In this document: positions 22,175 to 48,467 of the stretch, piece after piece
Position numbering within the stretch: position 1 is the stretch's first letter
Layout: each line of letters begins with the position of its first letter
IMG/VR virus record: IMGVR_UViG_3300006201_000009
DNA from: a virus
Taxonomy: Duplodnaviria > Heunggongvirae > Uroviricota > Caudoviricetes
Reading direction: 5' to 3' (one strand)
DNA length: 64,000 nt
Made by a program: the position numbers and the translations under genes
The notes under the pieces: generated by a model
Database searches by the model: none
What the model saw: only the letters and a program-made list of their open reading frames with translations
What the model was told of the DNA's origin: nothing

Positions 22175-22177
22175 GTT

Positions 22178-22677: not shown

Positions 22678-23037
22678 AAAAAAAACTAATGGTGTGCTGT
22701 TACGCTAAAGACTCCAAGGGCACATATAGCATTGCCAGCGAACAGGGACTTAGCATATTCCACTGGGTTAAGTCGCAGAGTTTTCCTTTCTTTGCAACCT
22801 TACTATATTACACACTACTTACAGCTCTCGAACATCATAGATATCAGACCCTCGGGCGTATTTCAACGCCGTCCAAACTGCACTATATTGATGCCGTACC
22901 ACTTTCGTTTCCCTGAGGTGAAGATGTGTAGTGTAAGTTCACATCACATCGTTTCTTGTATGCCCGTGTACTTTGTCATACTTCCTCTCGTCACTCTTTA
23001 GATGGTGGCTGCTTCTAAGCCCACATTCCATTAGTGA

Positions 23038-23120
23038 TGGTGGGAGAGGTTGGACTCGAACCAACGAAGCCGAAACGCCTGATTTACAGTCAGGTGCAAT
23101 TGCCGCTATGCGACTCTCCC
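23038..23120 (-). tRNA. tRNA-Tyr (GUA), type II with long variable arm
   Basis: Acceptor GGGAGAG/CTCTCCC, anticodon stem CCTGA/TCAGG loop CTGTAAA, variable arm ~13 nt, T loop GGTTCGAGTCC, CCA. Confidence 0.65.
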
Positions 23121-23166
23121 ATGTAGTAAGAGCATCCTACCTAAACATTGAACGAACCGCCCCAGG

Positions 23167-23200
23167 TGGACGGTGTTGGAGTCGAACCAACATCTCTCTT
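23167..23200 (-). other. tRNA 3'-half-like remnant (T arm + acceptor 3' strand + CCA) immediately after tRNA-Lys
   Basis: Minus strand reads ...GTTGGTTCGACTCCAACACCGTCCA with no 5' half. Confidence 0.4.
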
Positions 23201-23276
23201 TGGTACCCGCGGTGAGAATCGAACTCACGACCCTTTGATTAAAAGTCAAATGCTCTACCGACTGAGCTACGCGGAT
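23201..23276 (-). tRNA. tRNA-Lys (UUU)
   Basis: GCGTAGCTCAGTCGGTAGAGCA D arm; anticodon stem TTTGA/TCAAA loop CTTTTAA; T loop GTTCGATTC; CCA. Confidence 0.65.
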
Positions 23277-23550
23277 AAAAAACAAGACACACCGAGACCT
23301 TCTATGTACATAAAGTAGCCAAAAATGGCAGAGGGCAACCAACGTAACACCTATATCCGCTCCCAGTTGCTTTTGCGGAGGAGTATGCTATTTAAGCATA
23401 AATCATTTAGCTTTGCTAAAAGTCATCTAACAACGGTTAGAACGTGGAAAACTCGCCAGCGAGCAGTCCTCAACTATACTGTTAATCTTCGTAAAGTTGC
23501 TGTGTGTGTCTTTAATAATGCGATGTTAAAAGGAGTGTACTTAATCGCAT

Positions 23551-23624
23551 TGGCAGGGACGGATGGGCTCGAACCATCACTGCGGGAGTCAAAGTCCCGT
23601 GCGCTACCGTTACGCTACGTCCCT
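23551..23624 (-). tRNA. tRNA-Gln (UUG)
   Basis: Acceptor AGGGACG/CGTCCCT; anticodon stem CGGGA/TCCCG loop CTTTGAC; T loop GGTTCGAGCCC; CCA. Confidence 0.6.
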
Positions 23625-23898
23625 ATAAAGGCTTTAAGGTCAGCCAACCGCACATACTTAACCCGAAAAATACTCAGGGTTGGATATTTGCTCCCCGAAG
23701 GTTTTACTCGATACTCAAACACACAAAGGGAATTTTCACTCGTCTCGTGAAATTCGTTATCGAATCGGATTTTCATGAGCTCGCGTAGTGAGCTTCTAAA
23801 AATCTGATTTGATGGAAGGGCGTTGTGATACATTTGCTATAAGCAAGTGCCTAACAGTATGTATAAAAGTTAGCATTGCTGTTTGAGTATCGGAGTAG

Positions 23899-23978
23899 TG
23901 GTGGAGCTGTTGGGATTTGAACCCAAGTCCTACGAATTCACTTTGGTTTTAATCGTAGTCGAAACCTTTCTCAGCCCC
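23899..23978 (-). ncRNA. tRNA-like RNA with canonical acceptor stem, T arm and CCA but aberrant D/anticodon region
   Basis: GGGGCTG...TTGGGTTCAAATCCCAA CAGCTCC A CCA; central part folds as an 5-bp stem (TACGA/TCGTA) with a 17-nt loop rather than a cloverleaf. Confidence 0.4.
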
Positions 23979-23979
23979 A

Positions 23980-24055
23980 TGGTTGGCAAGGATGGAATCG
24001 AACCATCGGCAACTGGTTTATAAGACCAGCCCCATCACCACTTGGGTACTTGCCA
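23980..24055 (-). tRNA. tRNA with anticodon UAU (Ile-like, AUA-decoding)
   Basis: Acceptor TGGCAAG/CTTGCCA, U8A9, D stem CCCA/TGGG loop AGTGGTGA, anticodon stem CTGGT/ACCAG loop CTTATAA, T loop TTCGATT, A73, CCA. Confidence 0.6.
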
Positions 24056-24060
24056 ATATG

Positions 24061-24136
24061 TGGAGCTGGATGTCGGACTTGAACCGACAACCTATCGCTT
24101 ACAAGGCGATTGCTCTGCCAATTGAGCTAATCCAGC
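24061..24136 (-). tRNA. tRNA-Thr (UGU)
   Basis: GCTGGATTAGCTCAATTGGCAGAGC; anticodon stem ATCGC/GCGAT loop CTTGTAA; T loop GGTTCAAGTCC; CCA. Confidence 0.65.
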
Positions 24137-24138
24137 GT

Positions 24139-24216
24139 TGGTCACCGCAGAGGGGGTCGAACCCTCAAACTCCACCGTGAAAGGGTGGTGACTTTAGCCA
24201 TTTTGTCTATGCGGCG
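24139..24216 (-). tRNA. tRNA-Glu (UUC)
   Basis: Anticodon stem CCACC/GGTGG loop CTTTCAC; T loop GGTTCGACCCC; CCA; acceptor with one G-U. Confidence 0.55.
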
Positions 24217-24368
24217 ATAAAAATATATAGGCTGTTCCTCAAACTCCATTTAACGTATCGTTATTTTCCGGCGCCCCAGTCAATAACTTTATCCATCCTT
24301 TCCCCGTTTCAATGCGGGTGTCTGCTTTACACTTCACTTCGCGGTTAGTACGGCACCTATATATTTTT

Positions 24369-24515
24369 TGGTGACTCGAACAGGAATTGAACCTGTACAT
24401 CTATCCCGTTTCTCGGCTACATACTGCAATGCAGGGATGTCGCGAACATCGCCGTAACCTACGCTTTAAGGCTTACTGTTCCCTCAGGGGTGTTCTATCA
24501 TTGAACTATCGAGCC
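24369..24515 (-). ncRNA. 147-nt tRNA-like RNA: canonical acceptor, U8A9, D arm, T arm and CCA, with ~70 extra nt replacing/inside the anticodon-variable region
   Basis: 5' GGCTCGA-TA-GTTC-AATGATA-GAAC ... 3' ACAGG-TTCAATT-CCTGT-TCGAGTC-A-CCA; 7-bp acceptor pairing (one G-U); internal small hairpins (CCCTGAGGG, GCGATGTTCGC, CTGCATTGCAG). Confidence 0.45.
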
Positions 24516-24518
24516 AAA

Positions 24519-24608
24519 TGGCGGAGGGTGTAGGACTCGAACCTACGCTCCGAATGAACGGAGAACGGCTTAGCAAGCCGCGGCAGTACCAACTATGCTT
24601 AACCCTCC
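24519..24608 (-). tRNA. tRNA-Ser (GCU), type II
   Basis: Acceptor GGAGGGT/ACCCTCC; anticodon stem GCGGC/GCCGT loop TTGCTAA; variable arm CTCCG-TTCATT-CGGAG; T loop GGTTCGAGTCC; CCA. Confidence 0.65.
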
Positions 24609-24622
24609 AAGCGGGAGCATCG

Positions 24623-24886
24623 CTACTCCCAATATGGATATATTTCAGCATCCGACACGTCTCCGTGAGACCATTTTACTGCCTTTCCGGCGTGAACAAT
24701 GGGCTCATCTTCTTTGTCATCGAATGATTGTTGTACCTTTTGCGTTGCGGCTTCTTCATTTTTTGCAAACACAACTCGTTGTCCATATATTCTGCCGCCG
24801 TCAAAGTAGGTTCCAGAGTAGGGAACTGTGAATTTCTTTAATCCTTTAATCATAAAACACCTATTCTGTATTGAAATTTTCGCCAT
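24623..24886 (-). CDS. Hypothetical protein
   Basis: ORF only. Confidence 0.3.
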   Translation of the reverse strand: MAKISIQNRCFMIKGLKKFTVPYSGTYFDGGRIYGQRVVFAKNEEAATQKVQQSFDDKEDEPIVHAGKAVKWSHGDVSDAEIYPYWE

Positions 24887-25133
24887 TCGCAGATATAAAG
24901 GTTGTAACAGCTTTTGCTATGTCATTTTTTTCACCTTTGATAACGAGAGTAAGTTCAGTTTGATACGATTGCTTGCACTTAACTATTGCTATATTAAATC
25001 GCGAATGATTTCGTATGAACCATTCCAGTGCGTGACGAACAGGGACATACAGGTATTCGCCAAATGAACACGTGCGGTCATATTTATGCACGGAATTTAT
25101 GTGAAGCACTTTCTTTCTTTTCATATTGACCAC
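24861..25133 (-). CDS. Hypothetical protein
   Basis: ORF only. Confidence 0.3.
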   Translation of the reverse strand: MVNMKRKKVLHINSVHKYDRTCSFGEYLYVPVRHALEWFIRNHSRFNIAIVKCKQSYQTELTLVIKGEKNDIAKAVTTFISANGENFNTE

Positions 25134-25156
25134 CTTTTTTGAATAAAAGAGTACTT

Positions 25157-25378
25157 TTATTTAAGGTTACGCAAGATTGTTTTCTTGTCTATGTCACACA
25201 TCTCGCAAAGTTCATCAAACCAGTCAGACGAAAAGAATTTTTTCAGCTCTTTCATATTGAAGTCCTTGCATTCCGTGGCTTGTCCGTTCCGTAATGCTCG
25301 GAAATCTGAGATTGCTTGTAGCAATACTGCGGCAATCAATCTGCGAATGGTTGTTTGATCAACATACTGTGTGCTCAT
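25157..25378 (-). CDS. Hypothetical protein
   Basis: ORF only. Confidence 0.3.
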   Translation of the reverse strand: MSTQYVDQTTIRRLIAAVLLQAISDFRALRNGQATECKDFNMKELKKFFSSDWFDELCEMCDIDKKTILRNLK

Positions 25379-25402
25379 ATTTATGTATCCTTATAAATTT
25401 TT

Positions 25403-25491
25403 TGGCGGAAGCGGTGAGATTTGAACTCACGAACCCTTGCGGATTGCCAGTTTTCAAGACTGGTGCAATAAACCAAGCTCTGCCACACTTC
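25403..25491 (-). tRNA. tRNA-Ser (UGA), type II
   Basis: Acceptor GGAAGTG/CGCTTCC; anticodon stem CCAGT/ACTGG loop CTTGAAA; long variable arm; T loop GGTTCAAATCTC; CCA. Confidence 0.6.
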
Positions 25492-25502
25492 CATAGTAGG
25501 GT

Positions 25503-25974
25503 TTAACCCCACACGACGGCGCATAAACTTGCAAGTCGCGCTCTATATTCAAAGTCTTTCGGTAAAAAATTGCCGTACAAGAGCTTCATTTCCGAAATCA
25601 AAGCCTCTTCGCTTTCATAAGCTTGCTCAAACAGCGACGCATACCTCGGTAAACACATCAAAACCCAATCATCGTTCTCAACATCAACACCTATTTCGTT
25701 AATGTCTTTGATAAGAGGGGTAAAATCACCGTAAATATCGTTTCCGTATGACCATTTGTGACAGATTACACCTTGTTCCCAATTTTCTTTGAGATAATAT
25801 TGGCTATCGTCGCAAATGTATTGTCTAATGGCGTCGTATATATCTTCGCCTTCGTCGGGTTCAAGCTCAATGCCGTCTTTTTCTTTAATATATTCGCGGA
25901 ATTTTTCCACGTCGATTTCCTGAATTTTGACCGCAAGCCCTTTATCGCTCACGGCATAGCTGTGTGTACTCATA
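25503..25974 (-). CDS. Hypothetical acidic protein
   Basis: AAGGAG RBS before MSTHSY start; longer ORF-track version overlaps tRNA-Trp and is rejected. Confidence 0.4.
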
Positions 25975-25988
25975 ATTGCTCCTTTTTT

Positions 25989-26062
25989 TGGCAAGGGTGG
26001 GGCGAATTGAACGCCCATCAATGGTTTTGGAGACCACCGTCCTACCATTAAACGACACCCTT
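25989..26062 (-). tRNA. tRNA-Trp (CCA)
   Basis: A1-U72 acceptor AAGGGTG/CACCCTT; anticodon stem GTGGT/ACCAT loop CTCCAAA; T loop GCGTTCAATTCGC; CCA. Confidence 0.6.
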
Positions 26063-30741: not shown

Positions 30742-31464
30742 TTAAATACAAAAGCCGAAAGCGACGCCGACACTGTAGTTGGCACTGAGGTAATTGCTGA
30801 AACCGGTGCTGGAGACATAGCAGAAGGAGCTGCTATTATTGTAATACGGAGAGCGAAGCCACTTCTCATTGTTAAACGTTCTATTTTCAGTCAGTACAAA
30901 ATACTCATACTGCTCATTCTCGCCAAGGCGGGAGTATTCAATCTCTCCACGGATTTCAACTTCGCTGAACAAGAAGCATTTATCTGTGGTGCTGACTATC
31001 TCTTGACTTCCGCCACCCGCAGAGGTGCGCTTAATAACAGGCTTAATGGCGTTGCGAAGTGTTTCGGGTAGCAGTCGCAAAATCCTTTCCATGCGAACAG
31101 TTCTCATTTCGCTGTCTTTCCAGCTCGTAGTGTTGGTACGTTCCGCGTTCATTCTGAAAAGACCGTCCATTTCCAAGATGCCGAAGGTTGCTTTCGCATT
31201 ACCTTCACGCTCTGCAAGTTTATCCTTGTCAGTATCAAGCAAAATCATTTTGACTTTTTCGCCCGTATAAAGCTCGATTATTTTGTAATCGCCAACGCCG
31301 AATCTTTCCGTAATATCGTCGTTGTTGTTGATATAATCGACGAGCTCTTCGAGGGAGCAGTCAATTTCCTGCGGCACGTGGGTTCTCGTCTTTTTGAAGA
31401 CCTTACAATTATGGCAATGGGGTTCCTTACCGAACATTTCACAGAAACTGCATTTTGCTTCCAT
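30742..31464 (-). CDS. Hypothetical protein with N-terminal zinc-ribbon
   Basis: CSFCEMFGKEPHCHNC. Confidence 0.3.
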   Translation of the reverse strand: MEAKCSFCEMFGKEPHCHNCKVFKKTRTHVPQEIDCSLEELVDYINNNDDITERFGVGDYKIIELYTGEKVKMILLDTDKDKLAEREGNAKATFGILEMDGLFRMNAERTNTTSWKDSEMRTVRMERILRLLPETLRNAIKPVIKRTSAGGGSQEIVSTTDKCFLFSEVEIRGEIEYSRLGENEQYEYFVLTENRTFNNEKWLRSPYYNNSSSFCYVSSTGFSNYLSANYSVGVAFGFCI

Positions 31465-31469
31465 ATGTA

Positions 31470-31925
31470 TTACCTCTTAATATTTTTTATCGCCTCAGTG
31501 GCGAGCTTGTCGCATTCATTATTGAATGCGTTATCGGAATGACCTTTAACTTTGATGAACCTAACCTTATGCTTCTTGGTAAGTTCGATAAGTTTGAGCC
31601 ACAAATCTTTGTTTTGTACTGGCTTTCTGCCACTTGTTCTCCAGGCGGAATTCTGCCAGTTTGTAATCCAGTTTTGGTTGAATGCGTTTACAACGTAGGC
31701 AGAGTCGCTATACAATGTTACTCGACTTGGTGTTTTTAATGCGAGAAGGGCATTTATAACGGCGGCTAACTCCATTCTATTGTTGGTAGTTTCGGCTTCA
31801 CTGCCACTTAACCGTTTAGAGTGTGTGCCGCACATTAAGATAGCACCCCATCCGCCCACACCAGGGTTTCCTGAGCAAGCTCCGTCTGTGTAAATTGTTA
31901 CATCATACATATTGCATTCCTCCAA
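31470..31925 (-). CDS. rnhA: Ribonuclease HI
   Basis: IYTDGACSGNPGVGGWGAIL...TNNRMELAAV...DSAYV...KGHSDNAFNNECDKLA is collinear with RNase HI catalytic DEDD residues. Confidence 0.7.
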   Translation of the reverse strand: MEECNMYDVTIYTDGACSGNPGVGGWGAILMCGTHSKRLSGSEAETTNNRMELAAVINALLALKTPSRVTLYSDSAYVVNAFNQNWITNWQNSAWRTSGRKPVQNKDLWLKLIELTKKHKVRFIKVKGHSDNAFNNECDKLATEAIKNIKR

Positions 31926-32474
31926 AAATATTTGCCGTTACAATCCATGTAAGAAATTGTTGATCATGAAGAGTCACTGAAGTCCGCCACGATGGAAGTT
32001 CTGTAAGTTCGTTAATCATAAATTTGATATTTTGTCAAGAAAGTTTCAATTGAAAGTGGGAAAATAAATTTATTTTCTTGCCGAATTACATTTGTTGTTG
32101 GCTCTTTCTGTGTCGAATTCCTCACCATATTGGTTTCAGGAGCAGGTGATTGCGCATTTGCTGCCTCTGGCAGGCACCGTCTCTCTGACATTTTGGCACT
32201 TTAGATTTAACCTAAAGCTCTATCCGAAGATAGACATAACGATTGTAATGTGAAGCTCAAATACGAGAAAGGGGCGGCGGCAAGCTCCAGAGGAGAGCCG
32301 CCGTTTACGAATCTAACTTTTATCATAAATTAAACTCAAGTTCGCAGAAATTGGTTTAATTTATTATCAAAGTTGGATTTGTATGTGGGATTGTCTTGTT
32401 ACATCCGATATAACCAGATGCCCAATGCTATGTATTAAATTGGAATTTCTATTTAAGCTTCATTTGCTTTTGTC
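31926..32474 (-). ncRNA. ~550-nt non-coding region downstream of RT containing structured repeat element A (candidate ncRNA)
   Basis: No ORF >=60 aa; contains conserved element at 32186-32260 with covarying hairpins. Confidence 0.3.
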
Positions 32475-33623
32475 TTAACCGGCGCGGAGAACCTCTTTGA
32501 TGGTTGCTTCCACGTCTTTGTGAAATTTCTCACTGTACGACTTGATTATCGTTTCGATTGTTTCTCCCTCGACCATTTTGTAATAGGAGATAAGCCCTTG
32601 TAGGTGTTGGGTATCTTCCAGTGACCACGTGTTGCCGTTTTGCTCATCGTTCATAAACGAGAACAGCATTGCCTTAAAGACTTTCTTTTTGGAGTGTCCA
32701 ATCGTGATTTGGTTGTCGTTGTTAAGCATAACGCCTAAATTCCAGTTACGCCCCGCCGAACTTCCGTATCTCGTTTTATTGGTGTTAAGAGTAAACGGAG
32801 CGTGGAATTTATTATTTACAATATCTAATACCGCGTTCTGCACATCGCCCCAGTTGAACGACAAGTCACTCGAAAGGATGATGTCGTCCGCATATCTTGT
32901 GTAAATGAGATGGGGAGTATGTTCTCTCGACATTTTTGCAATAGCGTGGTCAACCGGTATCATAAACAGATTGGTAAGAGTAGGGCTTATCGGGGTTCCT
33001 TGCGGCAAACCGTTATTCAAGTAACACAACGACAATGCTTTCGTTAATTCTTCGCGACCATCTTCACGTGCAAGTATCTCATTGTAGGGGAAGATAAGAG
33101 AAAGTTGCGCAAGAATAAATTCAGGCTTGGAACTTCCGAAGAAATCGTGGAAGTCGAGTTTGAGAAACCAGCGCGACTTATTACGTTGATGTCTCTTAAC
33201 CGCGTCGATTGTACTTCTGCCTTTAACGTAAGCAAACGCTGCGGTGTGATAACTCGCAAAAAGTTGCTTCTCAAATAAAAATTTGAGTTCTTTCAATGCA
33301 CCCATCAATTCATCGAGAGGCGCATTTATTTGGCGCAAGCCGCCGCTTCTTTTGGGAATTTTGAAACTCCTATACAAAGTGGACTTATCCTCGGTGTTGA
33401 TGAGGTCAATATGCCTTTCGTTGAACTTATGAAGAGCGGTTATCATTGCGTCTATATTAACGCGATCCAAAAGACGTTGCGGGGTTCTTTCGCGATAGAC
33501 GGTCTTCGTGTCGTGGGTGTTTTCCATTTGACGCGCAAATGCGGCTTCGTTCATTCCGTTCAAAATGTCGTCAAATGATACTTGGTACATTTTTTCAGGT
33601 ACCGGTGCTGTTATGTATGGCAT
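32475..33623 (-). CDS. Reverse transcriptase (stand-alone RT, retron/UG-DRT-like size; no maturase or endonuclease domains)
   Basis: RT motifs FKIPKRSGGLRQINAP (1/2), LDFHDFFGS (A/3), GLPQGTPISPTLTNLFM (4), YTRYADDIIL (YADD, 5); 382 aa. Confidence 0.75.
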   Translation of the reverse strand: MPYITAPVPEKMYQVSFDDILNGMNEAAFARQMENTHDTKTVYRERTPQRLLDRVNIDAMITALHKFNERHIDLINTEDKSTLYRSFKIPKRSGGLRQINAPLDELMGALKELKFLFEKQLFASYHTAAFAYVKGRSTIDAVKRHQRNKSRWFLKLDFHDFFGSSKPEFILAQLSLIFPYNEILAREDGREELTKALSLCYLNNGLPQGTPISPTLTNLFMIPVDHAIAKMSREHTPHLIYTRYADDIILSSDLSFNWGDVQNAVLDIVNNKFHAPFTLNTNKTRYGSSAGRNWNLGVMLNNDNQITIGHSKKKVFKAMLFSFMNDEQNGNTWSLEDTQHLQGLISYYKMVEGETIETIIKSYSEKFHKDVEATIKEVLRAG

Positions 33624-33934
33624 TTGTGTGCCTCCTAATAAACTGATTTTTGTGAAACGGGCTTCTGAAGGTGACCATGGGTCTCGTTGTTGATGTAGAT
33701 TACCGGTCAGTTTCGTGGAGAAACTCGTAGGATTTCTTAAATGTTGGGGTGATTTTGGGAGTTTTGATAAGGTTACGAATAGCTGATTTGGTGCTTTCGG
33801 CTACTCGCACGCCGATGACGTTCGGCGAGCATCTCGGGATGGAGGTGCTGGCGTCCTTCGTCGCCCTGACATTTTGGCACTCTGGATATAATCCAAAGCC
33901 TTATCCGAAGATAAGCATTGCTTTATTAGTTGTT
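33624..33934 (-). ncRNA. ~310-nt structured non-coding region upstream of RT containing repeat element B (candidate RT-associated ncRNA)
   Basis: No ORF; GC-rich hairpins (gccgatgacgttcggc) and UUCG-hairpin element. Confidence 0.3.
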
Positions 33935-34609
33935 TTAATATGCGTCTACTTCAAAATTGAACGCATCGATTGTTACAATCTTTTTCAGTTCGTTCTTACG
34001 GATGAAGTTCATAAAATTTGCTACACCGTATGAGCAAACAATTCGGACGGTCGGTGCAATGCCCATTTCTACGTGACACGCCGTCATAGGAGTGGACTCT
34101 TGCGCTTCTTCGTGAGAAAATTCCATTCCCTTAATGAAGTTGTCCACGCTTTTCGGATCGCGCCAATCCGCAGCATAATGCTGAGCATCTTCGAGCCTTG
34201 TCCTAAAATCAAACATTGCTTTGATGGACATATTCGGCTTATTTTTTGTCGCAATCGTTCTACGCAGGTCGATATTGTCAACGCAGAGAAAGACATAGCC
34301 ATTGAGCTTGGTCTTTTCCGACCAGCCGTCGTTGCAAATTTGGATGTCGTTCTTCGCTTCGGGATTGATTGCAAGAAGCATATCCCTTACGGCTTCCGTC
34401 TTTAATCGCTTAATGTCGGCATTTACAAACATCTGGTTCGCAAGGTTATGTGCCGATACAACGTCGAAGTCGTACAAAGATATCTTGGTAAGTCCAAGAC
34501 GAATGAGGAGTTCTGCTACCGTCGAGCCGACCGAGCCGCAGCCAATAATATGGCAACGGTTCGTAACCTTAATCGGGTCGAAGTAGTCCTGAGATTTTAC
34601 AAGATTCAT
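33935..34609 (-). CDS. Minimal E1-like ThiF/MoeB-family adenylyltransferase
   Basis: Rossmann GxGxxG IIGCGSVGSTVAELLIRLG followed by LYDFDVV; 224 aa; operon with JAB and Ubl-like genes. Confidence 0.6.
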   Translation of the reverse strand: MNLVKSQDYFDPIKVTNRCHIIGCGSVGSTVAELLIRLGLTKISLYDFDVVSAHNLANQMFVNADIKRLKTEAVRDMLLAINPEAKNDIQICNDGWSEKTKLNGYVFLCVDNIDLRRTIATKNKPNMSIKAMFDFRTRLEDAQHYAADWRDPKSVDNFIKGMEFSHEEAQESTPMTACHVEMGIAPTVRIVCSYGVANFMNFIRKNELKKIVTIDAFNFEVDAY

Positions 34610-34611
34610 AT

Positions 34612-35550
34612 TTATCTACCTCCGTATCGTCCGTAGCCGTACACACCACTATAATAGTCATCGTCAAGCGGGTCAGGGGCGTCATCGTCAAGAGCACTCA
34701 GTTGACGCGCTTCTTGCTTAGCTCCAATCTTCGGAGATTTTGTAGTTGTAGCGGGCGTCGTTTGCGCTGCCGCTGTGTTTCCATACGAACCGCCGTAATG
34801 GGAACCTCCGCCGTAATTGCCACCGCTATATCCACCGCTGTTATAGCTGTATGTCTTTTCCTTAACGAGCTCTTTTGCTTCGTCGAGGAACTTCGTAAGC
34901 CAGCCAGCGGACTCGTGAAGAATGTTGATTTCGTCCGTTGAGTAAAGCGCATTATTCTGTAAATCGTACACTTCACCGCTTATGTCGCCCTTTTTGTTAA
35001 AGATAAGGAAAATGTAGAAGTAATCGGACTTAGCCGACGGCATTCCGAAGTTGTTCAAAATATTTCTGCGGTAAGTCATATCAACGGTTGACGGGGTAAC
35101 GCCCATATTCACATGGGAATGTCCATGGAAACGGAGAGCGTTGAACGTGTTGTTATCGAGACCGTCAAGCCACTCTTCATAAGCCTTTTGGTCGGAAGTT
35201 ACAGTTGAACCTGTAACTTCGTGGGGGAAAACAAGGATATCCTCAATGAGGAACGTGTCGGGAGCGGTTCTCTTTACAACTCCGTGCCACTCAACCTCGG
35301 TAGAGTAGGAGTGGACGAGTGCAAAAATCTTTATCCACGCTGTTTCTGTAAAGATAATGTTTGCTTTACGATCGTCTTTTACTTCTTTGAGCTTGAAGTT
35401 GAGGGTTACGCCCTCGGATTGGTCGCCCTGAAATTTTTTCTTTTTGAGCTGGCGACTTTCTTCGATGAGTTGCGCCTGAGCGCTACGCAGAAATTCATTG
35501 ACTTCTGCTTCGGTAGGGAATATTTTTTTAGCCATTTTCAGCACCCTCAT
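34612..35550 (-). CDS. JAB/JAMM-family metallo-isopeptidase with Gly/Tyr/Ser-rich low-complexity C-terminal tail
   Basis: JAMM motif E...HGHSHVNMGVTPSTVD (HxHx7SxxD); C-terminal GGYSGGNYGGGSHYGGSYG...YYSGVYGYGRYGGR. Confidence 0.65.
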   Translation of the reverse strand: MRVLKMAKKIFPTEAEVNEFLRSAQAQLIEESRQLKKKKFQGDQSEGVTLNFKLKEVKDDRKANIIFTETAWIKIFALVHSYSTEVEWHGVVKRTAPDTFLIEDILVFPHEVTGSTVTSDQKAYEEWLDGLDNNTFNALRFHGHSHVNMGVTPSTVDMTYRRNILNNFGMPSAKSDYFYIFLIFNKKGDISGEVYDLQNNALYSTDEINILHESAGWLTKFLDEAKELVKEKTYSYNSGGYSGGNYGGGSHYGGSYGNTAAAQTTPATTTKSPKIGAKQEARQLSALDDDAPDPLDDDYYSGVYGYGRYGGR

Positions 35551-36913
35551 TTTGTCTATTCTCTCTTATATAAGCAAGAAATTCGTGAAGTGTCATCTCT
35601 TTCCCGTTATCAGCAAGTATGCACTTACGTGGCGTGTCAAATGTATTGCGTACATCGTCTACAAACTCTCTGATGACAGTAGAATCACCAAAGTTAATGT
35701 TTTTAACGGCGGCAATGGTTTGTTCGATAGCCATATCCCAATTACCTTGTTCCATATAAGAATTGATGTATCCCTCGTTACCACCAAGACAAGCGTGATG
35801 ATACAGGTGCGGATGGGGCAAATGGGTGTTGTTAAATTGTCCAGAAACGTAGCCTCTTCGAGCATTAAGACTTGAAAGGTTAACCAACCTGAACATACCT
35901 TCAACCCTAAAGACGCCCTTGTTTTCGGCAAACACCCCATAAAAGACATCTTTGATATCTTTACTTGCGCCACCGATTGCTGAATGTTGATTGTTATATA
36001 AGCGCAAGAATGCGTCGGCATCAAAATACTCTATCGTTTCGACAACAGAGAAGTCCATTACGTTGCCATCGGTGCCTTGCGAGGTATTACAAATTGTGAT
36101 CTGCCTATGCGACATAAAGAACTTGTAAACGCTGTCGTCTGCACTATTTCCTTGTGCTTGAAGTGCTTCTAAATTGATGCTGCTTTGATTGATCTTATTG
36201 AGCAAGCTTGTGATTTCCGCTTGATAACGTTCGATTGAACTGTGATATTCGTCGCATTGTCTTTTTAGAAGTGATATCTGCCTCGTGCGATAGCCGTCAT
36301 TCCAGCCGATAAGTACCTTTCTAAACCGAGATGACTTAAAATCATACGGCGCACATAAATTATCTATGATTGTCCTAAACGCATCCTCGTTTTTGTCGTT
36401 GATAGCTTTGAACAGATTTTTTTCGTCGTTACTTATGCCCTCGGTGAAATACCACGGAAGAATTCTGAACATTATGGAACAGAACATATCCATCCATTTT
36501 TCCGAAGAAGAATTTCTCACAAAGACGATAGTGCTTCTTAAAGCCATATTGGAATAAACGCGGGTTTCCGATGCACCGGAAAGATAGGGGGCGACAGGAT
36601 ATGGAGGCGTATCCAGCGCAACCCAACCCTCTTCGTTAATTGTAGGTAGCTGTGCGCCACGGGGTGCGGTTAAAATATAGAGTTCGATGCCATATTCTTT
36701 GGCGCGATAAGCATACTCGTTTCCGTTGGTACGCTCGTAAAACTGATCGGTTTCACACTTGATGGTTTTAATCGTTTCTATATCGCCCTGATGGTGTTTC
36801 AGGGCGATGAAACGTAAAACTGCTCCAAGCGTAAAACTACCCAAAGGGGAGTTATTATTGCCAAAGAAAGCGTTAGCATCAGAACTCGTGATGATAGTAT
36901 TCACGTAGTTCAT
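35528..36913 (-). CDS. Large protein with possible C-terminal E2/UBC-like element (HPH...C)
   Basis: THLPHPHLYHHACLGGNEGY resembles the UBC HPN-x(6-8)-Cys active-site context; position between Ubl-like and JAB genes. Confidence 0.3.
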   Translation of the reverse strand: MNYVNTIITSSDANAFFGNNNSPLGSFTLGAVLRFIALKHHQGDIETIKTIKCETDQFYERTNGNEYAYRAKEYGIELYILTAPRGAQLPTINEEGWVALDTPPYPVAPYLSGASETRVYSNMALRSTIVFVRNSSSEKWMDMFCSIMFRILPWYFTEGISNDEKNLFKAINDKNEDAFRTIIDNLCAPYDFKSSRFRKVLIGWNDGYRTRQISLLKRQCDEYHSSIERYQAEITSLLNKINQSSINLEALQAQGNSADDSVYKFFMSHRQITICNTSQGTDGNVMDFSVVETIEYFDADAFLRLYNNQHSAIGGASKDIKDVFYGVFAENKGVFRVEGMFRLVNLSSLNARRGYVSGQFNNTHLPHPHLYHHACLGGNEGYINSYMEQGNWDMAIEQTIAAVKNINFGDSTVIREFVDDVRNTFDTPRKCILADNGKEMTLHEFLAYIRENRQNEGAENG

Positions 36914-36938
36914 ATCCTGTACGCTCCTTTATGTATTC

Positions 36939-37175
36939 TTATCTTGCGCCGTCGGCTTTAACGATGCTGTTCAAGTTGACGGTTGCGCCGTCTGCCACGC
37001 CGAGCTGCTCGAAAGTCGAGTTCAAATCCGTTATCGTAAGAATGCTTCCGTTGAGGTTGACCATTGCGCCGGCAACGCCTGCATCCGCCTGTTCAAATAC
37101 CTGAGCGGGGGTCTTCGTTACTTCCGTGATAACTTCCTGGCGCATCGTGTTGGTTTTTACAAGAACTTTAATCAT
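36939..37175 (-). CDS. Small beta-grasp/ubiquitin-like candidate (78 aa)
   Basis: Size, predicted beta-rich fold, position at head of E2-JAB-E1 operon; ends ...VKADGAR (no terminal GG). Confidence 0.3.
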   Translation of the reverse strand: MIKVLVKTNTMRQEVITEVTKTPAQVFEQADAGVAGAMVNLNGSILTITDLNSTFEQLGVADGATVNLNSIVKADGAR

Positions 37176-37306
37176 AATGATTTCTCCTTAATTTTGATTT
37201 TTTGTGGATGTGGGTGACCGGTCACTGGCTCGCCGTACCTATCTGTCCTTTAAGTGAGCAACCCACAGGGGAATGGGGCGCGTTTCAGCGCCCCGCCGTC
37301 TGTTTG

Positions 37307-37708
37307 TTACGCTACGGTGATGCCGTCGATGAGCTTCTTGCGCTTGTCGGCAACCGCTTTCGCCGCTTCGGAAACACTCTTTTCGAGCTGTTCAAGGTAG
37401 GCAATCACGCCGCCGAACTCTTCCGCAACGAACTTCTTCGCTTCGTCGGTATTGAGATGAGGGGGGAGCATCTTGGTGATGGTTGCGCATCCTTCTGCGC
37501 CTTCGCCGCGCCCTTCGCCGCTGAACGTCACGCCGAACGGAGCAACGCTGGGTTTACCCTCGATGTAGTCTACGCCGAAAAGCGTTTTCTTGGTTTCTTT
37601 GTCCACGATAGTCAACGCTGCGGGGTTGTACTTCTTAAGAAGTGCGATGTCCGATACCTTGATGGTGGACGTGAGTGCATAAGCATCTCCGGTGATTGTG
37701 AGTTTCAT
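37307..37708 (-). CDS. Hypothetical protein
   Basis: AGGAGA RBS; upstream operator-like inverted repeat GTGTCTAAT...ATTAGACAC. Confidence 0.35.
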   Translation of the reverse strand: MKLTITGDAYALTSTIKVSDIALLKKYNPAALTIVDKETKKTLFGVDYIEGKPSVAPFGVTFSGEGRGEGAEGCATITKMLPPHLNTDEAKKFVAEEFGGVIAYLEQLEKSVSEAAKAVADKRKKLIDGITVA

Positions 37709-38166: not shown

Positions 38167-39711
38167 TTAACCCTTAACGGCTTGCTCTACGAGAGCGTAA
38201 CGTTCGCTGTTAAGTTGTTCAAGCAAGCACTCAAACGGGTCGGTGGAATTGCTGAGAACCATTTTGACAATGGCGGGACTGAAACCGCTTACCAGAGCAA
38301 CGCCGAGTTCGTTTTCTTTTACGGGGATAGTTCCCGTGCGGCTGCAAATATTCCAGAAAACCAAGCGGGGGAGTTTGTAGCCGAGCTCTGCATAACGCTT
38401 TGCGATAACAGAGAAAAGCTTTTCGTCAACCCTCGCATATCCATATCCTGATCGACGAGAAGATACCGCACAGGAATCAAATTCCATATCGGAGAGGATA
38501 AGGATATTTGCGGGCAGTTCACTCTGCTTCATGTGTGCTTTTATCGCAGTTGTTAATATTAAGTCAAACACAGCTTCGATGTTTGTGTTTGCAACTTCAT
38601 TATGGGTGCGAGCAATGCCTATTTTATCGCGAAGCGATTTGCCGCTCGCGAGGTTGACGAGTTGCGGATGTTCGCTGAACGTGATGTACTTATCTTTGAA
38701 CTGCCCCGAACTTCTTTCGGCAAAGTAAATTGCCAAAGCGTTGGCGACATCGAGGCAAGAAACGCCCGTACCACCAACCGTCGAAGTCATACTGCCAGAC
38801 CCGTCGGCTACGCAGATCGTGTTGCCGTTTTCTTTGACGTAATCGGGAAGTGCCTTCCACATTTCTTCAAGGGCGGTATCCTTGTCCAAAAGACCGCCCC
38901 AGCTTCCTTTGCTGTATTTGTGAACGATATCGTGAGGGAAGAGGACACCCGCATTGATTTTTGTTTCACCCCTTTCGAGCTTGGAAAGATACTCTCTACG
39001 GCGTTCTTCGTCGTTGCGCAAGAAAGCTTTGTTGTAGATAAGGTTCGCTCTCGACGGAACCGCTGCGTATTCGATCGCCGACCACTCACGGTTGCTCATC
39101 TTAACTTCTACTACGTTCGTATAAGAGCGCAGAGCGGAGAGCATTTTACGATACTGTCTCTCAGTGATGCCGAGCTGACCGATAAGCAGTTTTGCATAGC
39201 GGCGAGTTTCTGCGGAAGAAGCATTTGCGGACGGCATCCATTTTGCACACAGCGAAATCGGTTGTTTGCGACCATAATTGCTCATATCACTGTCCAGCTG
39301 CTCTTTGATGATTGCCACAACCTCGTTGTGAAGCGCGGTGTCGAGCAGAACGATGAGATTATCCCATCGAGTGTATTCGGGGATGAGCTTGAGAAGTTTC
39401 AACGCAACGGCAGGTTCTTCCTGAATAAGATATTCCATACCGATACGGAACAATCTGCGTTCACCAAGACCGCCACGAACATCGCCGGCATAGAACAGCC
39501 ACTTGATAGCGAGCAATTTATCTTCGTAATATGCCTTTGCAAATCTCGCTCTGATATTTGCAGGAACCTCGTTACGTAACGAAGACACCGCAAAGTTGAT
39601 GTCGAGCAAAGCCTTGCCCGAAGTACGATACCCAACCGCGCCGTTTTCGGTACGCGATTCGTTGAAGTCTTCGCCGAGCGTGCGTTTGAGATTGTCCATA
39701 AAGTTGTTCAT
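38167..39711 (-). CDS. rsr: Ro60/Rsr-like protein (TROVE-like N-terminal region + vWA domain with MIDAS)
   Basis: vWA MIDAS CVADGSGSM; ~515 aa; GGAGG RBS before MNNFMDNL; the 611-aa ORF-track version is an artefactual extension across two tRNA-like genes. Confidence 0.5.
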   Translation of the reverse strand: MNNFMDNLKRTLGEDFNESRTENGAVGYRTSGKALLDINFAVSSLRNEVPANIRARFAKAYYEDKLLAIKWLFYAGDVRGGLGERRLFRIGMEYLIQEEPAVALKLLKLIPEYTRWDNLIVLLDTALHNEVVAIIKEQLDSDMSNYGRKQPISLCAKWMPSANASSAETRRYAKLLIGQLGITERQYRKMLSALRSYTNVVEVKMSNREWSAIEYAAVPSRANLIYNKAFLRNDEERRREYLSKLERGETKINAGVLFPHDIVHKYSKGSWGGLLDKDTALEEMWKALPDYVKENGNTICVADGSGSMTSTVGGTGVSCLDVANALAIYFAERSSGQFKDKYITFSEHPQLVNLASGKSLRDKIGIARTHNEVANTNIEAVFDLILTTAIKAHMKQSELPANILILSDMEFDSCAVSSRRSGYGYARVDEKLFSVIAKRYAELGYKLPRLVFWNICSRTGTIPVKENELGVALVSGFSPAIVKMVLSNSTDPFECLLEQLNSERYALVEQAVKG

Positions 39712-39831: not shown

Positions 39832-39950
39832 TGGGAGCGGTGGGACTCGAACCCACGACCACGAGCTTAAAAGGCTATTCAGTAAAATTGCTGTGAGAGA
39901 TTTTACAAACCTCGTAGTGATACGTGCTCTACCAACTGAGCTACGCTCCC
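39832..39950 (-). ncRNA. Y-RNA-like tRNA mimic 1 (acceptor + D arm + T arm; anticodon arm replaced by 8-bp stem with 41-nt loop)
   Basis: GGGAGCG-TA-GCTCAGTTGGTAGAGC ... GTGGG-TTCGAGT-CCCAC-CGCTCCC-A; no CCA. Confidence 0.55.
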
Positions 39951-39956
39951 AAATGA

Positions 39957-40073
39957 TGGAGATGGTAGGACTCGAACCTACAACCTTCGGCACCCTATGC
40001 AAAAGTAAAGTTGCTGTATGAGCCTAACAAGACTCGTCTTTAACGACGCTCTATCCAGTTGAGCTACATCTCC
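39957..40073 (-). ncRNA. Y-RNA-like tRNA mimic 2
   Basis: GGAGATG-TA-GCTCAACTGGATAGAGC ... GTAGG-TTCGAGT-CCTAC-CATCTCC-A; expanded central region; no CCA. Confidence 0.55.
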
Positions 40074-42395: not shown

Positions 42396-42895
42396 AATCC
42401 TAACTCCTTTGTGTCTAAATATGTTTTATGCAATTCACAATCCTGTGTAACGTAGAAGGTGATCTCAGAAGGTTCCGGAGAAGCTTGGATACGGGAAAAA
42501 TTCGCAAGTTACCGTAACGAGAGGTCATTGAGAATAAGGAACTTAAAGAAATGTTACTTATCGTCTGCAATTATTAACTCGAAATGGTGAGGCGACCTGC
42601 TCCAAAGACCTTGGTTGTTCAGCCCGATGTCCAACGGCGGTGCCGTCGTCCCGCGGAGCTGCCTGCGGCGCCTGTCCGTCTCCCTGACATTTTGATACTT
42701 TGAGTTTTACCCAAAGCCCAAACCGTTAGGTAAGGAATACGATTGTGAAGTCCGCCAGCCACTCGGTAGGCAAAGGGGGATACCTACCGAGGGAGGTGTT
42801 TGTGAGGTATAAGACCTGTGCTGGCGGTGCGAAAGTGTCTAAATATGTCGTAAAAGCCTTAAAAAATTTAAGCACCTCGCAGGTGTCATTGGTGA

Positions 42896-45318: not shown

Positions 45319-46654
45319 AATGTTACACTCCTTGAATGTATGTATTTTTTTGAGCAATCGGTTGAGTATCCACGCCCGCCACGAGGAGGCTTGCTCATTG
45401 GGCGCATCGCCCCACATAACGTGGGGCATAAGGAGGAGAAAAATGAAAGAAGGGCAGAGATTATGCGGGTTTGTGCAAGTTGTCCAATAAAAAGGACACG
45501 AACCGTTCGAGGCATTTTTCGCCCCGTTTTGCGTAATGCGCCGCAATCTCGGACACTTGTGCCAGTGATACATTATCGGCTAAACACAACGCTGCCGAGC
45601 GTTCGGGCATCTCAAAGAGATACTTTTCCATAAACACCTCAAAGCGATTTTTATGTGGGTACGTCCACAAGCGTTAGGCAATTAGCAAAATCACACTCGC
45701 CACGGGAAGGCTTGCCTTTGAGTGCATAAAGAACGCCCCGCGCAATACTGCGCGAAGCGTTCCCATATTACAGCGTATTGCTACGCTAATTGTAAAGTTT
45801 TGATAATTCACGCTATTCAAAATCCGTTTCAGACGTACACCGAATACACGCTAACACCCCTTGGGGCATAGTCGCATACATACTCGCACGACGGGATTAC
45901 CTTCGATTTGACAAACATAACGCCGTTTGTCTTACCCACTTGGGGCAAGTAACGCTATGCTGGCGCACCATTGTACGAAAGTCGTAATAATGACATCACG
46001 CATAGACACACGTTGCACAAGCCGAGTTTAGGTTTGATGCCATACCTGTTGCCATTTTCACTATCTGACGCGCAAAGGGGCTTAATTCCGCGATTGCTTA
46101 ACCGACGCATTTTTGATTTGGCTGAATGTACAGCCTTATGCTTGCGCATATGCCACTCATCACTATACCCTGATGGTGAATAGGTCGAGCGCAAAAAGCA
46201 CTCAATGTTAGGCAAGTTCGCCGATATTACTATCGCCCACGCTACACCACGCGGAGGTTTGCCTATGTAGCGCAACACCAATGTGTGGACGTCCCTATTA
46301 AAGGGAACGCCCCACATAATTGAAAGTTAAACAAGTTTGTGTCTTGACTGTCCGCAAGTCATAGTTGTTGTAATGAACGCTATGCCGTCCACCCTTACGG
46401 GGCGCGTTTGGCACGCGACGCCCCATAGGTAATTAGTCCCTATGGTAACTGTTTTATATACGGTCGTGATGTGATGCACGACATAAAACCTAATTAAACG
46501 TAACGCAAGAGGTTTGTTTGCGTTGTGTCCGCTCACTTAAAGAGTAGCGGGGGGCGGGGTGTCCGTCCGTGTGGGCGGTTGCCGTGTCCGCTCACTTAAA
46601 GAGTAGCGGGGGGCGGGGTGTCCGTGTCATACGCTCGCGGGCGCACGGCAAACA

Positions 46655-46692
46655 CGGCAAAAAGAAAACCCCCGCGGGGGCGGGGGTTTAGG
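46655..46692 (-). terminator. Rho-independent terminator (GC hairpin CCCCCGC/GCGGGGG followed by U-tract on minus strand)
   Basis: aaaacccccgcgggggcgggggttt; on minus strand hairpin then TTTTCTTTTTG, just after the stop of 46705-47454. Confidence 0.55.
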
Positions 46693-46704
46693 TGGTTGCG
46701 GTGG

Positions 46705-47454
46705 TTATGCGTTAGCGGGTTGCGCTTGCTTGTATGTGGTGTATTTGCGTTGTATCGCTTGTAAATGCTCTTGTAGCGTTTTGCGGTGTATTTTCAAAAT
46801 GTCCGCTATTTGGTGTACGCTTTTACCGCTCAGCCGATAGCGTAAAATTTGCGCTTGTCGGCTTGTCAAATTTAACGCTTTAATCGTTGCGGTTACTTGC
46901 TTAAAGTCCGTTGCCGTTGGCATATCCCATTCGGCGGGTATTTCGTAGTAAAGCGTGTTGCCGTCCGCGCCGATTTCGTCCACATATACCCGCTTGTAGT
47001 CGTGTTGACGCTCGCCCATAATATAGCGGTTTACGGCTCTAAAACACGCCCGCAAAATGGTTGCGGGGTTGCCGTCCTTGTCTGTCTGTCCGTCCGCTGT
47101 CGCGTCTTGTAACGTCTTGCCGATATAGTCGCATAAAAACGCGCTCGCCGTTTGCGCTATGTCGTAGCCGTCCGACAACGGCGCGCCCGTCTTTTTGTTT
47201 TCGGTGATGTCCGCGACAAGTCCGCAATATAACGAGTATATAAAAGGCTGTCCGCCTTTTTGGTAGCAAGTTTTTAACGCTCTAATCGCTATACGCTCGC
47301 CCATTGTTTGCACGCTGTCCGCCGTGATAATTTCGGCGGGGTTTGCCGTGTCCGTTATGGGCGCGGGCGGGGTTTGCTTGCGGTTGCGCTTGCTTGCGGT
47401 TGCGGGGTTTGCTTGCCTTGCCGTCTTCGGCTGTTTGGTGTTGGTGGTTTTCAT
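46705..47454 (-). CDS. ECF-like sigma factor (region 2/region 4 with C-terminal HTH), high-GC gene
   Basis: C-terminal LTSRQAQILRYRLSGKSVHQIADILKIHRKTLQEHLQAIQRK (sigma region 4/LuxR-type HTH); GC content much higher than rest of phage. Confidence 0.45.
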   Translation of the reverse strand: MKTTNTKQPKTARQANPATASKRNRKQTPPAPITDTANPAEIITADSVQTMGERIAIRALKTCYQKGGQPFIYSLYCGLVADITENKKTGAPLSDGYDIAQTASAFLCDYIGKTLQDATADGQTDKDGNPATILRACFRAVNRYIMGERQHDYKRVYVDEIGADGNTLYYEIPAEWDMPTATDFKQVTATIKALNLTSRQAQILRYRLSGKSVHQIADILKIHRKTLQEHLQAIQRKYTTYKQAQPANA

Positions 47455-48467
47455 TTTTGTTTGTCCTTTGCCCTATATTTTGTTGACAACGGCGGGCGGG
47501 TGTTGTCGTGGTATAGTATAAAGGGCGGGCGGGGTGTTGTCAATGATTTTTGGCAAAATTTTTTCAAAAATATTTTTTCAAAACCTATTGACAACGGCGC
47601 GAAAAAGTGCCACCGCGTGGGGGTGCGCGTGCGCGTGTTATGCGCGGTTATTTCGTCGCGTGTGTGTGCGTGTCGCGTGGGTGTGGGTTTGCCCGCTGTC
47701 CGTGTCCGTCCGTCCGCTTGTCGGCGGTTTTGGCGGTTTGGTGTGGGCGTCCGTTTGGCTGTCGGCTGTCCGTGTGTGGGTGTGTTTGGTGTGGTGGTGT
47801 GGTGGTGTGGGTATGCGGGCGCGTGTTTTCCTTTACGGCTCACGGAATAACCGAAAACGCGCAACGGCTCACGGCTTGCGGGGGTCCGTGTGCTTGCGGT
47901 TGCGCTTGCCGTCCGTGTCCGTGTCGGCTGTTTTCGTCCGTCCGTCAAATATTATCTTTTTAACGTTGATAATATCGCCGTATAGTCGGGGGGTATTTTA
48001 CACGAAAACGGCAACCGAAAAACGGCGAACAGTGTGTGTCCGCTCACCATCACTCCCACAAACATTTCCCCGAACACCGACACCTCTTACCTCGGTGGAT
48101 CGTTTCGGAAACTTTCCCAATAGTGGGGGAGAATTTAGAAACGGGAATCTTGGCATTTTTTCTTGATCCATACAATCAATTTGTAAATTCTCCCGCACAG
48201 TAGGCATCTTTTCCGAAGACCTGCCAAATTCACAAAATAGGGCACATTTTACATGGCTCCGAACTGCACCCTTATTTGTGCCCGCAGCTGCTTTAGTAAC
48301 GGAGAGCTTCTTATATTATATATAGTAACAGTAAGCTCCCTTATATATAGCTTATAGTAACAGTAAGCTTACAGCGTATGCTCTCTTAGTTCAGAGTATA
48401 AAAGAAAAAAAATAAATAAAAAAAAGAAAGAAAACCTAAAATTTTTTTATTTTTTTTCGTAAAAACA

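Follow-up and report, generated by a model that had tools for sequence, protein, structure and literature searches.

Retrons, which pair a reverse transcriptase (RT) with a noncoding RNA (ncRNA), and bacterial operons for the conjugation of ubiquitin-like proteins (Ubls) are the described systems closest to the locus reported here. Carriage of retrons by prophages has precedent (e.g., phiR73). BilABCD operons (types I and II) are located in chromosomal defense islands, and their E1 protein, BilD, is composed of an inactive (IAD) and an active (AAD) adenylation domain, a mobile CYS domain and a structural zinc site. Type II cyclic-oligonucleotide-based antiphage signaling systems (CBASS) have Cap2, an E1-E2 fusion, and Cap3, a JAB protein, and conjugate the CD-NTase through its C-terminus. 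Bub operons use oxyester intermediates, with E1 and E2 proteins that carry no catalytic Cys and a Ser-His protease. The 13-type classification of retrons includes no ThiF, JAB or ubiquitin-like effector, and retron-like RTs were previously noted in lytic phages without effectors. Here, a 64,000-nucleotide stretch of the Caudoviricetes record IMGVR_UViG_3300006201_000009 (the whole stretch is referred to as the window) was analyzed, in which a Ubl, an E2-like protein, a JAMM-type deubiquitinase (DUB) and an E1 are predicted to be encoded in one cassette with a protein termed p133, a retron-type ncRNA and an RT. Full-text literature searches returned no paper joining a retron or RT with ThiF, JAB or Ubl genes, and a cassette joining a Ubl cascade to a retron is widespread and undescribed. 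On balance, we lean towards the Ubl-conjugation set being the effector arm of a phage-borne retron-type cassette.

The genes of the cassette and the RNAs associated with it were located at the following positions of the window:

37307-37708, minus strand: p133, 133 aa, the first gene of the cassette
36939-37175, minus strand: Ubl, a 78-aa protein with a beta-grasp fold in the predicted model and a C-terminal extension (...IVKADG-A-R)
35528-36913, minus strand: E2-like protein, 461 aa, with the candidate active-site residues H369 (35809-35807) and C375 (35791-35789)
34612-35535, minus strand: putative JAMM/MPN+ metallopeptidase (JAB), 307 aa, with the JAMM motif at 35127-35080
33935-34609, minus strand: E1, a ThiF-type adenylation domain of 224 aa, with the nucleotide loop GCGSVGS at 34543-34523 and the candidate catalytic Cys178 at 34078-34076
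33634-33928, minus strand: retron-type ncRNA 1, with a1 at 33928-33921 (CTAATAAA), G at 33920 and a2 at 33641-33634 (TTTATTAG)
32475-33623, minus strand: retron-type RT, 382 aa, with YADD at 32894-32883
31938-32248, minus strand: retron-type ncRNA 2, with a1 at 32248-32241 (TTACAATC), G at 32240 and a2 at 31945-31938 (GATTGTAA)
31470-31910, minus strand: RNase H1 (Pfam RNase_H, 1.4e-43), its start at 31910 being placed from an upstream GGAGG
42434-42749, minus strand: retron-type ncRNA 3, with a1 at 42749-42741 (TTCACAATC), G at 42740 and a2 at 42442-42434 (GATTGTGAA)

An earlier note on this DNA, made from the letters and their open reading frames (ORFs), had described four tightly coupled minus-strand genes as a Bil-like conjugation operon. 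All four ORFs were present (36939-37175, 35528-36913, 34612-35550 as the longest ORF, and 33935-34609), as were all of the motifs that had been quoted (LPHPH-LYHHA-C375, HGHSHVNMGVTPSTVD and GCGSVGSTVAELLIRLG). The tight coupling also stood, with gaps of 25 nt between the Ubl and 461-aa genes, 6 nt between the 461-aa and JAB genes and 2 nt between the JAB and E1 genes. If the longer JAB ORF is taken, the second of these gaps becomes an overlap of 23 nt; the second Met, at 35535, is probably the true JAB start, because an identical called protein (P0088) starts there. A Shine-Dalgarno sequence of its own was found before each of the four genes. From their predicted folds and invariant residues, the four genes are expected to form a complete, catalytically intact Ubl-conjugation set. 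Overall, the observation of the earlier note is confirmed and its interpretation is partly supported.

Related loci were fetched independently via the E2-like protein in genomes as well as viral contigs, via the RT (509 IMG/VR relatives) or via the E1 (229 relatives), resulting in 183 loci; conservation counts refer to 120-137 distinct homologues from these. A single-sequence pattern scan of IMG/VR with the 461-aa protein was empty, and loci were found by the alignment-, RT- and E1-based scans. All ORFs were subsequently annotated using hidden Markov models (HMMs), and the same block was recovered in each locus long enough to judge, whichever gene had been used for the search. The fixed order was p133, Ubl, E2-like protein, JAB, E1, retron-type ncRNA and RT, often followed by RNase H, and the only exceptions were loci truncated at contig ends and loci with a fusion of Ubl and p133. 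In all loci with remote homologues (28-39% identity) of the 461-aa protein, the arrangement was again a protein of ~130 aa, one of ~79 aa, one of ~460 aa, JAB, ThiF, a gap of ~300 nt and an RT. The surroundings of the block were highly variable, with 56 unrelated families of upstream neighbors and 54 of downstream neighbors in 127 distinct cassettes from phage and prophage contigs. The position of RNase H varied as well (after the RT, between E1 and the ncRNA/RT in loci L020 and L021, or before the E2-like gene in L043), and its insertion between E1 and the ncRNA left the block intact. Given that the gene block is constant despite these variable flanks, the cassette is, as far as locus comparison can tell, a discrete functional module and not background synteny. 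The earlier note had placed the four genes merely next to an RT; that part is revised, since the RT, the retron-type ncRNA and p133 are fixed parts of the cassette. Genes co-conserved with the RT, as is the case for retron accessory genes, were found in p133, Ubl, E2-like protein, JAB and E1, upstream of the ncRNA and RT.

The gene order of Ubl, E2, DUB and E1 is that of Bil, as the earlier note had said, and it invites the explanation that the operon is a self-contained Bil-type moron with which the phage tags proteins of competitor phages, the RT being an unrelated, free-standing retron or an accessory gene. We regard this as rather unlikely, given that the RT and ncRNA were never found apart from E1 in the 127 distinct cassettes despite free flanks, and that the block stays whole when RNase H moves in between E1 and the ncRNA. 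Membership in Bil was rejected: hhalign comparison to BilA, BilB and BilD of E. aridi was non-significant (probabilities of 0.07-0.7%), which counts against the moron and reduces the term "Bil-like" of the earlier note to an analogy. The cassette shares with BilABCD the gene order, a beta-grasp Ubl with a short C-terminal extension, a Cys-bearing E1 and E2 (a candidate Cys in each) and the context of a conflict system. It differs in that its E1 is a single domain of 224 aa without CYS insertion or zinc site (a further point against the moron), its E2-like protein is 461 aa in length with an added N-terminal domain and coiled coil, and its mature Ubl end is probably D-[G/N]-A. In addition, the cassette is encoded by phages and not in chromosomal defense islands, and its conjugation genes always occur together with p133, a retron ncRNA and an RT.

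The RT was matched by Pfam RVT_1 (3.8e-19), by PADLOC RT_II-A (1.5e-53) and RT_I-A (2.4e-48) and by NCBIfam retron_St85_RT (1.8e-56, 191.6 bits, under the cut-off of 235), and its YADD motif was invariant among homologues, as in RTs of the retron clade. The gap between E1 and RT (311 nt) had a fold z-score of -4.6 relative to shuffled sequence, and its 5' ~95 nt were conserved among relatives. This gap holds ncRNA 1, in which a candidate branching G (33920) is followed by two msr hairpins and a variable msd part, and in which a2 abuts the Shine-Dalgarno sequence of the RT. Compensatory changes were observed in the a1/a2 stem and in both hairpins (for example, in L020 TTCTGTAAT pairs with ATTACAGAA). 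Perfect 5'/3' complementarity over 8 nt or more was seen in 68 of 96 distinct cassettes, compared to 7 of 96 for shuffled and 23 for reversed controls, and a G came next after a1 in 63 of these 68, with the a1 sequences themselves widely different. The features expected of a retron ncRNA, namely adjacency to the RT, a1/a2 repeats flanking msr-msd and a G after a1, were therefore all found.

Two further ncRNAs were detected in the window. The first, ncRNA 2, is flanked by the RT and RNase H genes, and its a2 immediately precedes the ribosome-binding site of RNase H (nhmmer with the msr profile, 3.5e-11); its minimum free energy fold contained the a1/a2 closing stem and both hairpins, and a copy 3' of the RT was also present in related loci. 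The second, ncRNA 3, lies outside the cassette and belongs to the same msr family (nhmmer, 1.2e-10), with a fold that again contained an a1/a2 closing stem; a promoter-like sequence (TTGACT-17-TATAAT, ~42935-42907) was read by eye near it. The 32.2-kb and 42.7-kb copies are the part of the ncRNA evidence that a Bil-type moron would accommodate well, given that they leave RT templates not tied to the Ubl genes. Copy number was not fixed among loci: three copies were present in the window, four in L005 (8220-13124) and three in tandem between E1 and RT in L105 (7725-8517). One RT appears to serve several templates with unrelated msd parts. The cassette resembles retrons (types I-XIII) in having them as the closest relatives of its RT, an ncRNA just 5' of the RT, a1/a2 repeats, the G, two msr hairpins and fixed accessory genes, and differs in that its effector arm would be a five-protein Ubl-conjugation set, its ncRNAs are ~300 nt long and several of them are present per RT. 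The template RNA of the RT product is probably trimmed by RNase H. Separately, a diversity-generating retroelement was considered and rejected, given the retron-like RT and ncRNA template regions without a further copy in the window.

The E1 was matched by Pfam ThiF (PF00899) at 9.5e-22 (77.7 bits, cut-off 28.1). PADLOC Cap2 "E1-E2" models matched it at ~1e-15 within the N-terminal (Rossmann) half only, and the NCBIfam ThiF, MoeB and 6A-MBL models covered the same half, with the scores of both the PADLOC and the NCBIfam models far under their cut-offs. In the Protein Data Bank (PDB), the closest relatives were UBA5, MoeB, Uba1 and MccB (2e-12 to 8e-11). A match at 1e-10 was also recorded to PDB entries 9egb, 9egc and 9egd, a 264-aa "ThiF-type NAD/FAD binding fold domain-containing protein". 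In all 121 homologues, G23, G25 and G28 (of GxGxxG), D47, N55, Q59, K70, D111, R136 and C178 were invariant, so that the marks of the E1 superfamily (an HMM match above cut-off, GxGxxG, the Mg-ATP Asp and the Lys) were all present. The candidate Cys178 lies in a TP-x-[ST]-A-C loop that immediately precedes the GxAP helix, which is the place expected for the thioester Cys. One adenylation domain only was found, with neither a CxxC zinc motif nor a CYS insertion. UBA5, MoeB/ThiF and MccB are likewise single adenylation domains; the cassette differs from them in the lack of UFM1, sulfur-transfer or microcin partners, in the absence of a CxxC zinc motif and in gene context.

The JAB carries the canonical JAMM pattern, E80...H139-x-H141-x7-S149-x2-D152, which was invariant in all 124 homologues. 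Taken together with the ThiF match above cut-off and the invariant motif residues of the E1, this upholds the JAMM and E1 assignments of the earlier note, and the identification of the JAB as a putative JAMM metallopeptidase holds. The Gly/Tyr/Ser-rich JAB tail that had been pointed out is real; its sequence and length are not conserved among homologues, and it reads as a variable low-complexity Gly/Tyr/Ser linker ending in an acidic/aromatic patch.

A carrier or adenylation pathway (ThiS/MoaD-ThiF/MoeB or MccB type) in place of conjugation would explain the ThiF-like matches of the E1. In such a pathway, the product would be a thiocarboxylate (e.g., for phage tRNA thiolation) or a C-terminal Asn modification, the JAB would be a maturase as in CysO/Mec+ and QbsE/QbsD, and the 461-aa protein would be a non-E2 partner. 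We consider it very unlikely. Sulfur-carrier HMM matches (ThiF and MoeB models) were all far under cut-offs and confined to the Rossmann half, no cassette or its surroundings contained a partner of the rhodanese, cysteine desulfurase, PP-loop or MoaE/ThiG type, and the Ubl has no Gly-Gly end. An Asn-Ala terminus in most Ubl relatives would fit carrier chemistry; the window's clade has Gly at that position, which means that succinimide formation at Asn is not a shared mechanism. A carrier pathway would also leave the E2-like protein, the linkage to the RT and ncRNA and the fusions of Ubl and p133 unexplained.

The 461-aa protein was modeled from an alignment of 49 sequences (pLDDT 88.7; pTM 0.52, several domains being present). 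The model contained an alpha/beta N-terminal domain (residues 1-200), a long helix (204-253) and a UBC/RWD-like C-terminal domain (261-461). Structural matches of the C-terminal domain fell repeatedly in the UBC/RWD/UEV superfamily and were of modest score (FANCL 6.4, Ubc12 6.1, RWD 6.0, Cap2 6.0, Ubc13 5.7 and Tsg101 5.6), and a Foldseek search against the PDB returned nothing significant. The order of secondary-structure elements in this domain was of E2 type (a1, b1, b2, a two-helix insert, b3, b4, LPHPH, C375, a2, a3). H369 and C375 were invariant in 137 of 137 distinct members, at a median identity of 21% to the window protein. The active-site consensus was n-P-H-i-x4-C-l-G, and the segment [N/H]-P-H-x5-C-[L/M]-G, right after strand 4 and at the position of the E2 HPN...Cys site, was the sole absolutely invariant segment of the family (divergence to ~20% identity). 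An HPN-type motif with a candidate Cys after strand 4, as in E2 enzymes, is therefore present. Across the JAB, E1 and 461-aa alignments, the conservation of the motifs is far beyond what chance would be expected to give.

The N-terminal domain of the 461-aa protein is Mog-like, fast-evolving and poorly conserved. Its Mog-like character is a point for a carrier pathway, against which stands a C-terminal domain predicted to have UBC/RWD topology with invariant His and Cys. The same residues bear on another explanation, in which the 461-aa protein is a non-catalytic RWD/UEV scaffold (the E1 transferring directly), or in which the Ubl machinery modifies the RT and thereby primes or regulates it, as Cap2/Cap3 do the CD-NTase in type II CBASS; a family otherwise at ~20% identity that keeps [N/H]-P-H-x5-C-[L/M]-G invariant at the E2 HPN...Cys site is hard to explain by a scaffold, and we give this alternative little credence. 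The 461-aa protein is accepted as E2-like with a probable catalytic Cys, on the basis of its model and alignment, and this is the weakest of the four assignments.

For the 461-aa protein, JAB, Ubl and p133, no match was found in Pfam, PHROGs, PADLOC or NCBIfam, and member-wise HMM scans (E up to 10) of the homologues gave nothing consistent. No PDB sequence match was obtained for the JAB or p133, and when the JAB, 461-aa and p133 alignments were used as profiles against PDB sequences, only coiled-coil noise came up. In a profile search of 1.84 billion representatives, the E2-like family comprised ~2,200 clusters at 50% identity, nearly all of 440-500 aa and mostly without any annotation; no Pfam domain was present in the 87 listed relatives of the 461-aa protein.

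The predicted structure of the Ubl is a beta-grasp with a flexible C-terminal tail in the model. BilA was among its top structural matches, and the Ubl appears to be a precursor with a short C-terminal extension as in BilA, where the extension is reportedly removed by BilC; both points favor a Bil-type moron. A C-terminal Gly did not stand as a general feature, being restricted to the window's clade, in which the Ubl C-terminus is an invariant K-x-D-G followed by A/G and 1-3 variable residues. Among the IMG/VR relatives (loci L024-L183), the majority terminate at ...K-A-D-N-A without extension, with Asn replacing Gly.

In all complete loci, fused ones aside, p133 lies directly 5' of the Ubl. 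In 23 loci, of which 22 are distinct and diverged, the two proteins are fused as one ORF (Ubl-...KADNA-A-p133); the 23rd (L001) reads p133-then-Ubl, which is probably a sequence or ORF-calling artifact. The fusion ORFs are ~200-235 aa in length (typically ~205 aa) and lie 5' of the E2-like gene (L134, L065, L050, L160, L108, L145, L172 and others). In fusions the Ubl is N-terminal, whereas in the window's clade the genes are separate and in reverse order (p133 then Ubl), and the fusion junction is the same point at which the Ubl of unfused relatives ends (...KADNA). Given these three arrangements (an extension, a bare KADNA end and a fusion), the shared mature Ubl end is probably D-[G/N]-A with a small residue (Ala) last, and two or more of the three would call for a processing peptidase. 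The Ubl of Bub is likewise synthesized as a fusion and cut by the operon's own peptidase, and Bub also has a diverged E1 and E2; the cassette differs in that both of its candidate catalytic Cys residues are invariant and its peptidase is of JAMM type, so that the defining traits of Bub were not found. The traits of CBASS were not found either: no CD-NTase or cyclic-nucleotide effector was present in the cassette neighborhood, and the cassette has a separate E1 and E2-like protein and a dedicated Ubl. The earlier note had named two outcomes as fatal to its reading, a lack of UBC and beta-grasp folds and a clustering of the JAB and E1 with sulfur-carrier pathways; neither was found.

At the 5' end of the operon, a promoter-like sequence (TTGACT-17-TATAAA, ~37915-37887) was read by eye 5' of p133. 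A scan for consensus promoters and terminators did no better than with shuffled sequence. A strong GC hairpin without a T-run (CGGGGCGC-tgaaac-GCGCCCCA, 37274-37295) lies just past the p133 stop and may be an attenuator or processing site that uncouples p133 expression from the remaining operon.

Several findings weigh against the Ubl set being a retron effector arm. No named retron family has a curated cut-off that the RT reaches, and it was therefore assigned to no named type. Because two further copies of the ncRNA are located outside the Ubl genes or past them, the RT may serve a separate function. The cassettes are all from a single broad group of phages, such that shared ancestry adds to their co-occurrence, and conserved adjacency is the sole basis for a functional link between the RT and the Ubl cascade. 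For the conjugation cascade itself, the JAB had no JAB, Prok-JAB or RadC match in Pfam, NCBIfam or PADLOC (12 members, E up to 10), the Arg of NLxRQ is Asn58 in the E1 (UBA5 is likewise without this Arg), and the lack of a Gly-Gly terminus, with Asn for Gly in most relatives, is unusual for a conjugated Ubl. Both the E2 assignment and the coupling to the RT are points that we infer.

If the Ubl set is the effector arm of the retron-type cassette, the following mechanism is proposed. The JAMM peptidase would trim the Ubl, after Gly76 or Ala77 in the window and by cutting the Ubl-p133 fusion in relatives. This trimming would expose the ...D-[G/N]-A carboxyl end, and the same enzyme would probably reverse conjugates too. 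The single-domain E1 (presumably a homodimer like MoeB/UBA5) would adenylate this end and load it on Cys178, from which the Ubl would pass to Cys375 of the E2-like protein, with the target chosen by the N-terminal domain and coiled coil. From each of the three ncRNAs, the RT would reverse-transcribe a part into multicopy single-stranded DNA (msDNA), primed at the G after a1, and RNase H would trim the template. The complex of RT and msDNA may then sense an infection-related disturbance and gate the effector, as in other retrons, with an effector that would tag proteins and not kill directly. A bolder version, in which the cassette is a new phage retron class whose msDNA from several ncRNAs controls a full cascade of Ubl, single-domain E1, enlarged E2-like enzyme and JAMM peptidase together with p133 as the Ubl-fused partner, or in which the msDNA or msDNA-bound RT is the substrate of the cascade, is offered tentatively, as a proposal that we would sooner doubt than assert.

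That the module lies inside a phage genome, as the earlier note had stated, is borne out by genes for a large terminase, a portal protein, a primase/helicase and an integrase-like recombinase in the window, which additionally encodes the following:

13803-15014, minus strand: RNA ligase
18367-19860, minus strand: nicotinamide phosphoribosyltransferase (NAMPT)
21892-26062, minus strand: array of 14 tRNAs

A blastn search of the operon against GenBank phages gave no match, and tblastn gave a single weak one (MT835544, 21% identity). Identical proteins were found on contigs up to 926 kb in length and in metagenome-assembled genomes of Clostridia/Christensenellaceae. Given these identical proteins and the integrase-like gene, the carrier is probably temperate, with Clostridia or Christensenellaceae of the gut as its probable hosts. 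Because the carrier is probably temperate, exclusion of competing phages from lysogens is the most likely role of the cassette. Counter-defense for the phage's own benefit is a live alternative, given that NAMPT, RNA ligase, tRNAs, a Ro60-like protein and Y-RNA-like RNAs (described below) are typical of counter-defense.

In related loci, a metallophosphatase, a macro domain, an NAD synthase and an AAA_33 protein resembling polynucleotide kinase are encoded in addition. The RNA ligase, NAMPT and tRNAs of the window combine with these genes to form a counter-defense/repair arm adjoining the cassette. A tandem pair of tRNA-like RNAs, ~118 nt each, was observed at 39832-40073 (minus strand), 5' of a gene at ~38167-39711 (minus strand). 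These RNAs were matched by the Rfam tRNA model at 51 bits with long insertions, overlap a weak match to YrlA (Y RNA-like) and were given no call by ARAGORN. The gene encodes a DUF2828/DUF7788 protein (phrog_850, "RNA-binding"), which is TROVE/Ro60-like with a vWA-like part, and the RNAs and protein together look like a phage Ro60-Y RNA pair. A DUF6273 protein with a Cys-rich N-terminal segment (CxxC...CxxC) is encoded at 30742-31464 (minus strand), and its gene often flanks the cassette, on the upstream side in 27 loci and on the downstream side in others. With regard to composition, a GC peak was observed at 46001-48000 (0.52 vs ~0.42) with strongly negative AT skew, and at ~48 kb the GC and AT skew change sign and transcription flips from the minus to the plus strand.

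Ubl conjugation in bacteria (Bil, Bub and the Cap2/Cap3 proteins of CBASS) on the one hand and retrons on the other, both recent and active fields, have hitherto been treated as different kinds of immunity, and the cassette unites the two physically. This union lies on the viral side of the conflict. It is common, as judged by the number of E2-like clusters and by IMG/VR contigs in the hundreds. A functional coupling, if there is one, would represent a new retron effector logic (tagging instead of killing), a new minimal E1/E2/DUB lineage with a non-Gly Ubl terminus and a single RT serving several templates. Should the proposal of a new retron class prove true, there would be a direct mechanistic link from nucleic-acid sensing by reverse transcription to protein tagging. 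Being compact in both proteins and RNAs, the cassette lends itself to direct tests of Ubl target choice and retron sensing, and both its multi-template RT and its small E1/E2/Ubl set may be of use as tools.

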